Origin: Coleofasciculus chthonoplastes F2-STO-03
GTDB taxonomy: Bacteria; Cyanobacteriota; Cyanobacteriia; Cyanobacteriales; Coleofasciculaceae
Assembly (NCBI GenBank): GCA_040222015.1
Contig: JAVJWO010000071.1
Location: 1 to 64,000 of the forward strand
Direction: 5' to 3'
DNA length: 64,000 nucleotides
The position numbers and the translations under genes are program-made. Below are positions 59,715 to 64,000 of the stretch, piece after piece (the stretch's first letter is position 1; every line of letters begins with the position of its first letter). The notes under the pieces were generated by a model, which was given only the letters and a program-made list of their open reading frames with translations, made no database searches and was not told the origin of the DNA.

Positions 59715-60338
59715 CTACTCTATGAGTCGTTTTAAAATTTGAATCACCCGATGCAGTTGGTTATCACGGCGAGTTGAAAGGGTAAATTTATCAGATAAAT
59801 CATATTCTTTTTGCTGAGGGTCTAGTTTGACAAAAAGGTAATCTTCTCCGGTGGTAATTAAACCATAAGCGGGATTCTCGGTTGTCGGGTTAGACATCAT
59901 GTAGGCGAGGGTTTGGGGTAAAGCCTGCATCACACTAAAACCATAGCGTTTGGTTTCTAAAAGGATGAGCCACAATCGCTCCTGCATGACTAAAATATCA
60001 ATGAGTCCCTCTAGGATTTGGTCTTTGTCTTCGATTTCAATTTTGATGTATTTTTCCCCTTTGATGAGATAGGGGGGATCGTACAAGCCTAATAGTTCTA
60101 GAATTGGAGCAATTATAATCAGGTTTACGGTACTTTCGGTAATCGCACCTTCGGCTTGGTAATAACGATAGCGGGTTCGTAGGCGATCGCACTTTTCAAT
60201 TTCCCCCAGGCTGAGTTCGGGTAAGGGTTCTAGCCATTCTGGGAAGAAGGTGGGGTTGGTTGTCGGCTGCAATTGAAAGGTATGATGCGCCTGGTTTAAG
60301 TTTGTAATCGCTTTGGTAACACCAATAACCTGGGGCAT
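59715..60338 (-). CDS. Stand-alone type I restriction R N-terminal-like (PD-(D/E)xK) protein
   Basis: ESTV....IAPIL, G.IDILV, LETK, LPQTLAYM, YGLITTG. Confidence 0.75.
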   Translation of the reverse strand: MPQVIGVTKAITNLNQAHHTFQLQPTTNPTFFPEWLEPLPELSLGEIEKCDRLRTRYRYYQAEGAITESTVNLIIIAPILELLGLYDPPYLIKGEKYIKIEIEDKDQILEGLIDILVMQERLWLILLETKRYGFSVMQALPQTLAYMMSNPTTENPAYGLITTGEDYLFVKLDPQQKEYDLSDKFTLSTRRDNQLHRVIQILKRLIE

Positions 60339-61256: not shown

Positions 61257-63470
61257 ATGGAAGCTGAAGAGGTTCTGAAACGATATGTAGCAGGAGAACG
61301 GGATTTTCGCGGTGAAAGTCTTTGCGGTCAATCGTTTAAGGGAAAAAACCTTTCGGGGGCAGATTTTAGTGAGGCGGATATTCGAGGGGCAAACTTTACT
61401 AATGCTTACCTAAGAGGTGCAAAGTTCTGTAGTGCGAAAGCCGGATTGCCACGTCATCAAGGAATTATTTTAGTATGTGTAGCATTTCTGCTAGCAACAG
61501 GACTTGGACTGGTTGCTGGATTAGTAAGTTTTTTTGCACTGGATCTACTCGGTTCATTTAATATTAAAAATATTATTTTACCTATGGATATTGCTGCAAT
61601 AGTAATGTCTGTATTTTTCTTTTTCTTAGTTTATTCTGGTTATAATAAAGCCAAAGAAGCTACTCGCAACAATATGGAACAGCACGTAGAAGTGACTGTA
61701 CATAGCTCTTTAGCCCTAACCTTCTGGGGAATTGTAGTTTTAACCATTTCAGTAGTTCTAATTTATTCTGGCAACTTTGCTACAGTTGTAGCCCTAACTC
61801 TATTGGGCGGTGTAGTTTTAATGACAGCTCTTCTCTTAGCTCTTACTATGGCTGGAGTTGGTGTTCTCACTGGCTCATTAGCTGTAGCTGTAATTTTGGC
61901 AGGATTCGTGGCTATAGCTGGTGCTGTAGCCAGAGTTTTTGTAGAAGGTGGTCAGTTGAGTGTGACTTGGGCAATCAGCTTTGTTGTAGCTAGCGCTGCT
62001 GTTGTCGGATTACTAGCTAGTTACATTGGTTTTGAAGCCTCAACGAGAAAAAGATTCGCTTGGATTCAGATGATTGCCATTAACTTTGCGGCTTTAGGTG
62101 GTACTAGCTTTCGCCGAGCCGATTTAACTGAGACGGACTTTAGCAGAGCTATTCTCAAAAGTACAGATTTTCGAGAATCCATTTTATATCAGACTTGTTT
62201 TATTGATGCGCGTAAATTAGAGCAATCAAGATATGACAATCCTAATTCTTCAATAATTGCAAATCCATCTGTCCGATATTTGCTTATCCATGGTGATGTT
62301 CAGAATAATCCATACACTCAAAACAAATCCTACGATAGAGAAAATCTCAGAGGTGCATTTCTAAAAGGAGCCAACTTACAGGATGCTAGTTTTATCGGCG
62401 CTGATTTGAGTGAAGCCAACCTGCAAGATGCAGACTTATCCAGAGCCAAATTAGTACAAACCCAATTAGATGAAGCCGATTTAACAGGTGCAACCCTCAC
62501 AGGAGCTTTTATCGAGGATTGGAACATCACCAGTCATACCAAATTACAGGGGATTAGATGTCGGTATGTCTTCATGCGTTTACCGACTAAAGATGACCCT
62601 GAACCTCGCCGCAAACCCGATAACCGGGAAGAAGAGTTTGAAGATGGGGATTTTGCCGACTTTATCAAGCCAATCGTTGATACTCTCGACCTCTACCATA
62701 ATCAGGGGGTTGACCCTCGTACTATTGCAATTTCCTTTAAGCAGTTAGCTGAAAATAACCCAGAGGCTGAGTTAGAGATTGTCGCGATGGAGAAACGGGG
62801 TAAAGATAAATTCTTACTCCGTGCAGCAACGGCTCCTGACGCTGATCATTCTAAACTGAATGCTGAGTATTTCAAGACTTATAATCAGATTAAAGCCTTA
62901 GCTGAAGCAGAAGTACAGGCATTACTCGCTGAGAAAGATAGCCGAATTTCCAGTTTAGAGACTATGGTAAATACGGCGCTACAGCGTCCAAGTCCAAGTT
63001 TTTATACAAACACGCAAGTTGAACAGGTAGGTATTATGACTAACAATCCTGGTGGTATTTCTCAATCCAATACAGGTTCAATGGGAGGTGGACAGCAAGG
63101 CGCTATCGGTGACCAAAACAAGCAAACGATGTCCACTCAAACGGCTGCATCCGCAGGGGAACAGCTAACCCAACAAGACGTTCTGCAAATGCTGGAGCAG
63201 ATTGAGCAAATGATTGATTCGGCTGAAATCCCAGAAGACATTAAAGAAGAAGCAAACACTTACTTGGGGGCGGCGAAAAAAGCTGTTGAGAAAGAAGAAC
63301 CAAACAAAGAACGGGTAAACATTAACCTAGAAGGAGTAGCAGAAGAACTAGAGAAAGCCAGTAAGGTAGCAGAAGCTGGCACTACTTTATTTACAAAAGT
63401 TAAGCCAATTCTCGTTAAAGTTGCAGGTTGGTTAGGTGCAGCCGCAGGTTCTTTCTTCGGTACTCTCTAA
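61257..63470 (+). CDS. Membrane pentapeptide-repeat protein with a G/Q/N-rich motif and C-terminal helical domain
   Basis: RY.AGERDF start, two pentapeptide blocks flanking several TM helices, coiled coil, NTGSMGGGQQGAIGDQN, helical tail. Confidence 0.88.
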   Translation: MEAEEVLKRYVAGERDFRGESLCGQSFKGKNLSGADFSEADIRGANFTNAYLRGAKFCSAKAGLPRHQGIILVCVAFLLATGLGLVAGLVSFFALDLLGSFNIKNIILPMDIAAIVMSVFFFFLVYSGYNKAKEATRNNMEQHVEVTVHSSLALTFWGIVVLTISVVLIYSGNFATVVALTLLGGVVLMTALLLALTMAGVGVLTGSLAVAVILAGFVAIAGAVARVFVEGGQLSVTWAISFVVASAAVVGLLASYIGFEASTRKRFAWIQMIAINFAALGGTSFRRADLTETDFSRAILKSTDFRESILYQTCFIDARKLEQSRYDNPNSSIIANPSVRYLLIHGDVQNNPYTQNKSYDRENLRGAFLKGANLQDASFIGADLSEANLQDADLSRAKLVQTQLDEADLTGATLTGAFIEDWNITSHTKLQGIRCRYVFMRLPTKDDPEPRRKPDNREEEFEDGDFADFIKPIVDTLDLYHNQGVDPRTIAISFKQLAENNPEAELEIVAMEKRGKDKFLLRAATAPDADHSKLNAEYFKTYNQIKALAEAEVQALLAEKDSRISSLETMVNTALQRPSPSFYTNTQVEQVGIMTNNPGGISQSNTGSMGGGQQGAIGDQNKQTMSTQTAASAGEQLTQQDVLQMLEQIEQMIDSAEIPEDIKEEANTYLGAAKKAVEKEEPNKERVNINLEGVAEELEKASKVAEAGTTLFTKVKPILVKVAGWLGAAAGSFFGTL

Positions 63471-63482
63471 TCGTTATAACAA

Positions 63483-64000
63483 ATGTGTGAACCACCGTCC
63501 CATGAACCCAATTCAAAACAGTCCCAGCCTGAACCAAGTGTTCAGCAGAAAAATGCAGGTTCAATGGGCGGTGGACAACAGGCGGCAATTGGTGATAGAA
63601 ATGTCCAGGTACAGGGAAAGGGTAACTGGGTCTGGAATTTTTTCTTTGGTTGGGGTGGCAAAAGTTTAACTCGACACGAAGAATACCGCAAGCGTCAGGC
63701 TTTACTCAATAACGTCAACAAATGTTGGGTCAAAGATGTTCTAGAAAAATCCCTCTACAATCAGGTGATGATTGAGTTGGGATTGGAGGAACGCCCCGAT
63801 GCTATTACTAATCCTTGGAGTGCCATTATAGAGACGAATGACTCACCTCAACCTCTCCCCGATGGAACTAAAATAATCGATATATTTGACCAAATCGGCA
63901 TAGGTCGAACGCTACTCATTTTAGGGGAACCGGGGTCAGGAAAAACCACGACGCTATTGGAACTCACACGCGATTTAATCGCCCGTGCGGAACAAGACAT
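63483..64000 (+). CDS. NACHT/STAND NTPase (NLR-like), 5' part; runs off the window
   Basis: Open frame from ATG 63483 (MCEPPSHEP...), R.RQALL..V...WVK.VLEKSLY, Walker A LLILGEPGSGKTTTLLEL. Not in the supplied ORF track. Confidence 0.88.
   Translation, partial: MCEPPSHEPNSKQSQPEPSVQQKNAGSMGGGQQAAIGDRNVQVQGKGNWVWNFFFGWGGKSLTRHEEYRKRQALLNNVNKCWVKDVLEKSLYNQVMIELGLEERPDAITNPWSAIIETNDSPQPLPDGTKIIDIFDQIGIGRTLLILGEPGSGKTTTLLELTRDLIARAEQD

Follow-up and report, generated by a model that had tools for sequence, protein, structure and literature searches.

The DNA analysed here (the window, 64,000 nucleotides) comprises bases 1-64000 of the 78.5-kb contig JAVJWO010000071.1 in the 7.7 Mb genome of the cyanobacterium Coleofasciculus chthonoplastes F2-STO-03. 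Two adjacent genes on the forward strand, close to the end of the window, are the subject of this study (Table 1). In brief, the first gene encodes a pentapeptide repeat protein with a transmembrane (TM) region, here called the effector, and the second encodes a NACHT protein, here called the receptor. An earlier note on this DNA had pointed to a short motif rich in G, Q and N that is common to both proteins, and had proposed that they signal by amyloid formation in the manner of NOD-like receptor (NLR) systems. The positions it gave for the two peptides are correct, as is the start of the NACHT gene 12 bp past the effector stop codon.

Table 1. Features of the effector and receptor genes and of the open reading frame (ORF) upstream of them, in window positions (aa, amino acids).
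Feature	Position	Strand	Remarks
Effector gene, 737 aa	61257..63470	+	Pentapeptide E 1.7e-30; 203 relatives
Hydrophobic low-complexity multi-TM region, aa 67-261	61455..62039	+	Kyte-Doolittle scan
Effector mid domain, aa 431-578	62547..62990	+	beta-alpha-beta-beta, then a single long helix
Portable C-terminal module	63036..63470	+	Met (MTNNPGG), motif, four-helix bundle
Effector-side motif ISQSNTGSMGGGQQGAIGDQNKQ, aa 601-623	63057..63125	+	type A of the A/B family
Four-helix bundle, aa 634-737	63156..63467	+	AlphaFold2 (AF2) model; profile A3
Bundle end KPILVKVAGWLGAAAGSFFGTL, contains GxxxGxxxG	63402..63467	+	hydrophobic last segment
Spacer of 12 bp, effector stop to NACHT ATG	63471..63482	+	
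NACHT gene, 5' part	63483..64000	+	full gene 63483-65798 on the contig, 771 aa
Receptor-side motif VQQKNAGSMGGGQQAAIGDRNVQ, NACHT aa 20-42	63540..63608	+	
Hydrophobic patch NWVWNFFFGWGG after the receptor-side motif	63624..63659	+	
Walker A GEPGSGKT in NACHT	63924..63947	+	
RHH-like ORF, 70 aa	60960..61172	+	local neighbour; weak RelB-like match

The two copies of the motif are identical in 16 of 23 residues and in 45 of 69 nucleotides. Nine of the 16 identical residues are encoded by different codons; the earlier note had seen such codon differences, and its count of seven is corrected here to nine. When pieces of both proteins were compared with the whole genome by tblastn, the sole similarity that emerged between effector and receptor was the motif (66.7% over 24 aa, E 5e-4 and 3e-4), in agreement with the note. 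A six-frame fuzzy scan of the genome, allowing at most four substitutions in the 13-residue motif core, found the two copies and one stop-containing match. Among the 5792 genome ORFs of at least 120 aa, the effector motif and the NACHT motif are reciprocal best matches, with a Smith-Waterman score of 87 and a next best score of 54. The composition is approximately 55% G+Q+N with few K, L or P, and the motif region of the effector is disordered in the predicted AF2 monomer (predicted local distance difference test, pLDDT, below 50).

We scanned one genome per species with the C-terminal half of the effector, which gave 203 relatives, and kept the best 80 loci. The variable stretch after MTNNPGG was then compared by alignment with residues 1-150 of all other ORFs at its locus. 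With ORFs of at least 150 aa, a neighbour scored at least 45 for 41 of 71 family genes, and at least 75 for 36 of these 71. In a control, where variable regions were aligned to random 14-kb pieces of the window's genome, scores of at least 45 were obtained in 37 of 2220 cases, none reached 75, and the maximum was 60. With ORFs of at least 120 aa, 42 of 74 family genes (72 loci, the window's included) have a matching neighbour. There are 59 matching neighbours, of which 58 are collinear with the effector and downstream of it and 28 begin no more than 100 bp away. Many related pairs have spacers of 9-12 bp.

The motifs fall into several types, for which the letters A-F are labels coined in the present analysis (Table 2). 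A matching neighbour is always of the effector's own motif type, and the types never cross. The co-occurrence of motifs in adjacent NACHT and partner genes that the earlier note envisaged is seen type for type.

Table 2. Motif types, and effectors of each type that have a matching neighbour.
Type	Motif	Effectors with matching neighbour
A/B	...GG(M/Q)QAA(I/Q)G(D/N).N.Q	6/10
C	VQGDNNRAVQGDNNQAVLGDGNQ	20/28
D	FGGGLVNADTVNAQQIGGNI	12/18
E	INTGGGNYNERIE.DYIQGN	1/2
F	G/A/V/S-rich	0/5
Mixed		3/7
Unclassified		0/4

Pfam was used to classify the 40 best-matching neighbours, leaving out the window's own. We found NACHT in 18 of these, nSTAND1 in three, iSTAND in three and AAA_35 in five. Two have WD40 only, one each has TPR, FGE-sulfatase, trypsin plus EAD9, Ig-like or HTH, and four belong to no family. 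Two large partner proteins match Avs4 in PADLOC. In seven of the 40, the type-C motif VQGNQNRAVQGNDNQSVLGD weakly matches LbR_Ice_bind, with 24.9-29.4 bits where the cut-off is 30 bits; these matches are located at the partner N-termini in L007, L009, L011, L014, L017, L023 and L032. LbR_Ice_bind is a beta-roll antifreeze repeat, and the type-C sequence fits a beta-solenoid-like repeat.

Three or four genes with the same motif are found in single loci (L039, L045, L052, L019, L053, L058 and L080). The combinations include effector, NACHT, mini-effector and Avs4-like STAND, or NACHT with AAA_35 or iSTAND and a trypsin-EAD9 protein. Because several genes of one locus carry the same motif, these arrangements suggest that one tag links several receptors and effectors. 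All titled loci are cyanobacterial except L066, which is labelled as an Actinomycetota metagenome-assembled genome (MAG) and may reflect a binning error or a transfer.

Comparison of close relatives revealed that the motif is exchanged in both partners. The NACHT proteins of Symploca (L044, L046 and L054) are 82-83% identical to the window's receptor over aa 131-400 and 76-77% identical over aa 61-130. Within their first 45-50 residues they carry motif D in place of motif A. In L046 and L054 the upstream effector has motif D as well. Among 41 genomes, that of the window (G000) and 40 relatives, the whole NACHT N-terminus including the motif is present in G000, G004, G013 and G020 only, and in other genomes of the same genus the NACHT match begins at approximately residue 60. 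Genome G020, of the same family and another genus, encodes a 147-aa mini-effector with a NACHT gene 12 bp downstream. In this pair motif A is changed in both partners, GSGGVGQQAATDGS and GSSGVGQQAAGTAKG; the cognate motif scores of the window and G020 are 87 and 53, respectively, versus 43-44 for the cross pairs. The Symploca MAG contig L006 carries a third A-type pair, in which the NACHT ORF breaks off after 102 codons. The motif-less NACHT orthologues L088, L089 and L093 have no effector in the 1.5 kb of DNA covered, and the same applies to the A-like NACHT of L086.

Based on these comparisons of sequences, we consider it very likely that the two genes are functionally coupled through the motif. 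The core of the earlier proposal, an NLR-type NTPase and a neighbour coupled by a shared short G/Q/N motif, is upheld by the 42 of 74 family genes, their collinearity, the 9-12 bp gaps and the swaps. Its view that the peptide is conserved, and not freshly duplicated DNA, agrees with the codon differences and with the recurrence of the pairing.

The effector is built from pentapeptide repeats, a multi-TM region, further pentapeptide repeats, an alpha/beta mid domain with a long helix, the motif and a helical bundle, in that order. The repeats thus flank the multi-TM region on both sides. This region is poorly conserved (alignments A1 and A2) and varies between strains. In contigs from two RNA libraries, effector positions 61445-62386 (L003 1445-2386) are swapped for 742 unrelated letters while the flanks match. 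The NACHT partners have repetitive hydrophobic C-terminal regions too, such as the GLxVGL runs in L044. Because of the swapped effector TM region and these repetitive NACHT regions, both partners may carry hypervariable membrane segments.

The mid domain shows 83% mean column identity (alignment A4), and its mean AF2 pLDDT is 76.6. Six of its eight best fold matches are the cytoplasmic alpha/beta domains of MscS-family mechanosensitive channels, with Z 6.4-8.1, which is a middling range and not decisive. Pfam searches of the mid domain at E<=1 gave no meaningful family, and TRADD-N is absent among the 50 fold matches listed for it.

The C-terminal part of the effector was modelled with AF2 on 72 aligned relatives. 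The model has a long helix, then the disordered motif stretch, and then a four-helix bundle with pLDDT 90-97 (model residues 181-270), in which the last helix contains a hydrophobic GxxxGxxxG stretch. A search with effector aa 575-737 matched 35 proteins. Most of these are pentapeptide/TM proteins from Coleofasciculus, Symploca, Moorena, Nostoc and Nodularia, and the same C-terminal part is also found behind a caspase (P0024), a kinase (P0032) and another N-terminal region (P0028). In related loci it occurs as stand-alone genes of 144-158 aa that start with MTNNPGG, each immediately followed by a STAND gene bearing the same motif. The earlier note had described an unusual effector in which an internal motif is followed by a helical domain. 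This description holds, and motif and four-helix bundle together form a portable module.

Profile A3, made from the bundle alone (22 sequences, 104 positions), matched 347 representative clusters (50% identity) at E<=1e-3 and 225 at E<=1e-10. In the 150 best of the 347 clusters the bundle is at or near the C-terminus, and many of the best-scoring clusters are stand-alone proteins of approximately 140 aa. Of 146 newly listed bundle proteins, 68 fall in the range of 125-170 aa, and in these an N-terminal stretch of approximately 40 residues is G/N/Q/S-rich. Some of the stand-alone proteins have N-terminal stretches near motif A (e.g. P0117), and others, in other lineages, have an N-terminal 'QAGRDL', as in the BASS1 examples seen (BASS, bacterial amyloid signalling sequence).

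Searches of the module against Pfam (E<=1) and NCBIfam gave no family, and a profile search of PDB sequences gave a best E of 0.09. Foldseek found nothing in the PDB for the bundle at E<=1e-3, and VIA-align against 48,161 chains returned generic helical bundles only, with YicC as the best (Z 12.2). Protein Atlas placed the query with unnamed cyanobacterial clusters (0.94), and listed DUF4404 (0.90) and TCAD2 (0.89) below threshold. In the libraries the module matches one model only, the PADLOC candidate PDC-M14B, over the C-terminal half of that model.

The methionine that opens the module, Met594 (63036, MTNNPGG), is nearly invariant within the fused genes, and the stand-alone genes start exactly there. 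In L039:10049, L045:10016 and L052:8220 a stop-interrupted vestige of upstream coding sequence (NFYSSI*VDKINI) precedes the stand-alone module. In the window, AGGTAGG lies 5 nt before the ATG of Met594. Judging from these sequences, initiation might also occur internally, at Met594, and yield a free mini-effector.

A paralogue of the effector is encoded at G000 C69:91376-93499 (707 aa, 58-75% identical in the conserved parts). It has a G/A/V-rich F-type segment and a different C-terminal tail. The next gene is a decarboxylase-like ORF and there is no NTPase neighbour; the segment has no N-terminal partner among the 5792 genome ORFs.

The receptor matches Pfam NACHT (E 3.4e-8, 33.9 bits, cut-off 26.7). 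Its Walker A box is intact, and LLPLLDGLDE contains a Walker B-like DGLDE. Residues 412-715 hold approximately 5-6 TM-like segments where other NLRs have TPR or WD repeats, and Pfam searches of aa 401-771 found no repeat family (TPR, WD40, LRR) and, at E<=1, no other family of note. The C-terminal 58 aa are kept in the partner NACHT proteins of 24 loci. An NW..N..FFG-like patch after the motif is found also in NACHT proteins with other motif types.

L004 and L006 share the NACHT start codon and the 12-bp spacer with the window. Relative to L006, codons 1-27 show six synonymous and five non-synonymous changes, with the frame intact. In pairs of the other types the distance from start to motif is 8-30 residues, and the start is 9-12 bp after the effector stop. 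The next in-frame ATG of the NACHT gene is Met28, within the motif. A paralogue of the receptor (G000 C125:57591-59885, negative strand, 764 aa, 43% identical in the NTPase part) has the same conserved C-terminal end and a TM-rich N-terminal region instead of the motif.

Upstream of the pair lies the RHH-like ORF, which the earlier note took for a regulator of the system. Its NCBIfam RelB-like match is weak (E 1.2e-3, 19 bits, cut-off 50) and a Pfam search gave no match. By tblastn it is found near family genes in 2 of the 80 related loci (L004 and L029), one of which is a near-identical relative. It is therefore no conserved part of the system, and we rejected it as a component or regulator. 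Further upstream, a 207-aa ORF (59715-60338, negative strand) matches PD_DExK of PADLOC (E 1.4e-6) and, weakly, HSDR_N families. A homologue with 40% identity is located directly upstream of the family effector in L030. This is the only one of the 80 loci in which it adjoins a family gene, and the PD-(D/E)xK gene was likewise rejected as a part of the system.

A scan of the locus for promoters and terminators gave 14 versus 12.9 and 7 versus 5.7 in shuffled sequence, respectively. The expectation is not exceeded and the scan is therefore uninformative on an operon. The junction, from the effector 3' end through the spacer into the NACHT 5' end, is spanned by contigs of four metatranscriptome libraries from four studies; these contigs measure 412-717 nt and are mostly 90-99% alike. 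We take them as weak support for a coupled pair; the parts of the locus without cover by such contigs are uninformative.

How could the motif couple the two proteins? We infer that it is of amyloid nature from its context and composition, and we consider it probable that the locus encodes a BASS-like pair with a new effector module, acting by amyloid templating and membrane killing. In brief, a trigger would cause the membrane-embedded NACHT protein to oligomerise, and the clustered N-terminal motifs would fold into a beta-arch or beta-solenoid nucleus. This nucleus would template the disordered motif of the effector. Ordering of the motif would strain the adjoining bundle and free the glycine-zipper helix, which would insert in the membrane, the damage leading to cell death or a growth stop. 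The outcome would be abortive infection or another conflict response. Relatives have a caspase, a kinase or nothing where this effector has its pentapeptide/TM part, which probably ties the module to the membrane or contributes a second activity.

The closest published counterparts are the BASS systems. Like BASS1-11, the present system has a G/N/Q-rich motif of approximately 25 residues that is common to an NLR/STAND N-terminus and a collinear, adjacent small helical effector. Very short gaps, filamentous cyanobacteria, and several motif families and effector types are further points of likeness. For BASS pairs, 91% collinearity has been reported, with 57% of the collinear gaps at 10 bp or less, and BASS motifs are enriched in G, N and Q and depleted in K, P and L (Dyrka et al. 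2020, bioRxiv 10.1101/2020.01.06.895854). In Escherichia coli, amyloid signalling has been described for the anti-phage pair Bab/Agp, BASS11 (Ibarlosa et al. 2024, bioRxiv 10.1101/2024.11.07.622273). Bab is a small helical domain with an N-terminal hydrophobic helix and a C-terminal motif (10.1101/2024.11.07.622273).

The present effector is different in that it is not a Bell protein, and it has no Pfam, NCBIfam or PDB sequence match; no sequence relation of the module to the BASS or Bab/Agp systems was detectable. In Bell, Bab and HeLo proteins the hydrophobic helix is N-terminal and the motif C-terminal, whereas the module described here is reversed, with the motif N-terminal and the hydrophobic helix C-terminal. 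In the window the module is moreover fused behind a pentapeptide/TM protein, which makes the motif internal. A screen of Bell C-termini (10.1101/2020.01.06.895854) could not have found the present effector. The strings GGGQQ, GGGMQ, QAAIG, QGNQN, GGNYNE and GGLVNA are absent from the BASS1-10 sets searched in the supplement on probabilistic context-free grammars of Dyrka et al. 2021 (PMC8086366). Only one BASS-labelled entry of this supplement contains GGMQA and QGDNN, namely an NLR N-terminus filed under BASS6, in which a B-type motif stands ahead of the BASS6 motif (PMC8086366). The other passage listed with GGMQA is a control fragment derived from the PDB.

The receptor core AAIGDRNVQ resembles '...GAIGDRNQQ...' and 'GVQVGDHNTQ', which are BASS3 examples in this supplement, and A-I-G-D-R-N-x-Q is a core common to BASS3 examples and the NACHT motif; we regard this as a lead towards the group of RHIM, BASS3 and the fungal PP motif. 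BASS3 and the receptor motif have the pattern hydrophobic-x-hydrophobic-G-D-x-N-x-Q in common. In contrast to RHIM and BASS3, the (I/V)Q(I/V)G tetrad is not kept (QAAIG, QAAQG) and the N.F tail of BASS3 is missing, whereas BASS3 is without a counterpart to the GG(M/Q)Q and ISQS parts of the present motif.

In the fungal NWD2/HET-S system, which is encoded by adjacent receptor and effector genes, a HeLo domain is combined with a HRAM prion-forming domain, and the N-terminal NLR motif templates the disordered motif beside this membrane-targeting helical domain. The motif at the NLR N-terminus, the disordered motif beside a helical domain and the adjacent genes are common to that system and ours. 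The fungal kingdom, another fold family as far as testable, and the reversed order set NWD2/HET-S apart. HET-s, in addition, has two motif pseudorepeats, whereas the present effector has a single copy.

PDC-M14B of PADLOC matches motif and bundle with its C-terminal half (approximately 145-267), at E 4.7e-7 for the window's effector and down to 1.1e-11 for the mini-effectors. The PDC-M14B models, of 261-275 positions, also include an N-terminal part that the present module lacks. We did not find a PDC-M14A partner among the proteins scanned, nor the name PDC-M14 in the literature searched.

Coupling of NACHT, nSTAND1, iSTAND and AAA_35 proteins to variable effectors by a swapped N-terminal element is likewise a feature of STAND/EAD systems (PMC7159879, PMC8195603). 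There the element is a folded EAD or Death-like domain, whereas here it is a disordered peptide of 23-40 residues, and EAD models matched neither the effector nor the NACHT protein. NACHT proteins with TM-containing C-terminal regions are a recognised bacterial category (Kibby et al. 2022, 10.1101/2022.07.19.500537). In the accessible parts of Kaur 2020/2021 (PMC7159879, PMC8195603) and Kibby 2022 (10.1101/2022.07.19.500537), pentapeptide repeats figure solely as sensor or scaffold repeats. In the TRADD-N proteins of Kaur et al. an RRM-like constant domain sits between variable domains at either end, and this domain order differs from that of the present effector.

A description of the present effector or its motifs was not found in the literature searched. 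NNPGG, GGMQAAQG and QGDNNQAV do not occur in the literature text searched, and GGNYNE occurs in one unrelated T-cell-receptor paper. We suggest that the effector module and the motif families are an undescribed variant of bacterial amyloid-type NLR signalling.

Several observations weigh against amyloid templating and membrane killing by this pair. Motif A is poorer in hydrophobic residues than the BASS examples seen, and motif strings of types A-E are not in the BASS1-10 sets searched, barring the one BASS6-filed NLR N-terminus (PMC8086366). The effector is already a multi-pass membrane protein, and release of a helix is therefore less obviously needed than in the soluble HET-S. The fold matches of the bundle, at Z<=12.2, are within the stated noise for helical folds; HeLo, Bell/Bab and MLKL are absent from the fold lists, which is uninformative either way. 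No matching neighbour is found for 32 of the 74 family genes, including all five of type F and the C69 paralogue; for 10 of the 32, the locus holds less than 1.5 kb of downstream DNA. The RNA-library contigs may come from DNA carry-over, and a single transcript is not provable from them. Prediction of a complex of two copies of NACHT aa 12-58 and two of effector aa 592-636 gave a score of 0.02 (mark 0.34), which speaks neither way.

The comparative data show coupling, not the physical form that the coupling takes, and the motif might be a homotypic docking tag of non-amyloid nature. A beta-strand or beta-roll interface would then recruit effectors stoichiometrically and act by induced proximity, with no self-propagation. 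The loci with several same-tag proteins (two STAND proteins plus one or two effectors; L039, L045, L019 and L053) fit such an address-code adaptor, and adaptor logic is known from cyanobacterial STAND systems (Kaur et al. 2020, PMC7159879). EAD and Death-like adaptors are nevertheless folded and helical, unlike a disordered G/Q/N-rich peptide of 23-40 residues, and, as said, EAD models match neither partner. Length, composition, position and gene arrangement all agree with the paradigm of bacterial and fungal amyloid signalling sequences (BASS/FASS), and BASS1-like motifs are found on the same bundle domain. We regard docking as the main rival, unlikely but serious, since it accounts for the same comparative data.

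We find it far less credible that a third factor, such as a protease, a modifying enzyme or a sorting or secretion machine, reads the motif and that the two proteins never touch. The conserved MTNNPGG and Met before the motif could mark a processing or start site. No third gene is kept in the loci, however (RHH in 2/80, PD-(D/E)xK in 1/80), the four or more motif types would require equally many type-specific factors, and the motif is at the N-terminus of cytoplasmic NTPase domains. The comparative data already contradict the view that the similarity has no function and arose as a low-complexity accident or by recent gene conversion at the locus. G/Q/N-rich stretches do have low complexity and the control did reach 45 in 37 of 2220 cases, but the motif score of 87 exceeds the control maximum of 60, nine synonymous differences are found among the 16 identical residues, and type-matched pairing recurs in dozens of loci from different genera.

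The loci as a whole may tentatively be viewed as a combinatorial prion-like network in cyanobacteria. At least four address codes (A/B, C, D and E) would wire NACHT, nSTAND1, iSTAND, AAA_35 and Avs4-like receptors to an undescribed glycine-zipper bundle executioner. This executioner would act alone (approximately 140 aa) or fused to membrane pentapeptide proteins, caspases and kinases. In the window the receptor would itself be a membrane-embedded NACHT protein, with sensing and killing both located at the membrane.

Amyloid signalling in NLR-controlled cell death is established in fungi. In bacteria it is known mainly from Bell-type systems, with one experimentally dissected case (Bab/Agp). 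To this the present locus and the related ones contribute another executioner module, apparently unrelated and with its parts in reversed order, several apparently new motif families that are swapped jointly in both partners, and a receptor class with transmembrane segments instead of repeats. The cassette swaps found in nature amount to ready-made tests of specificity. If the proposed mechanism is true, screens limited to effector C-termini have missed a large share of bacterial amyloid signalling, and the logic of a prion-like motif beside a membrane-active helical bundle would have arisen more than once.

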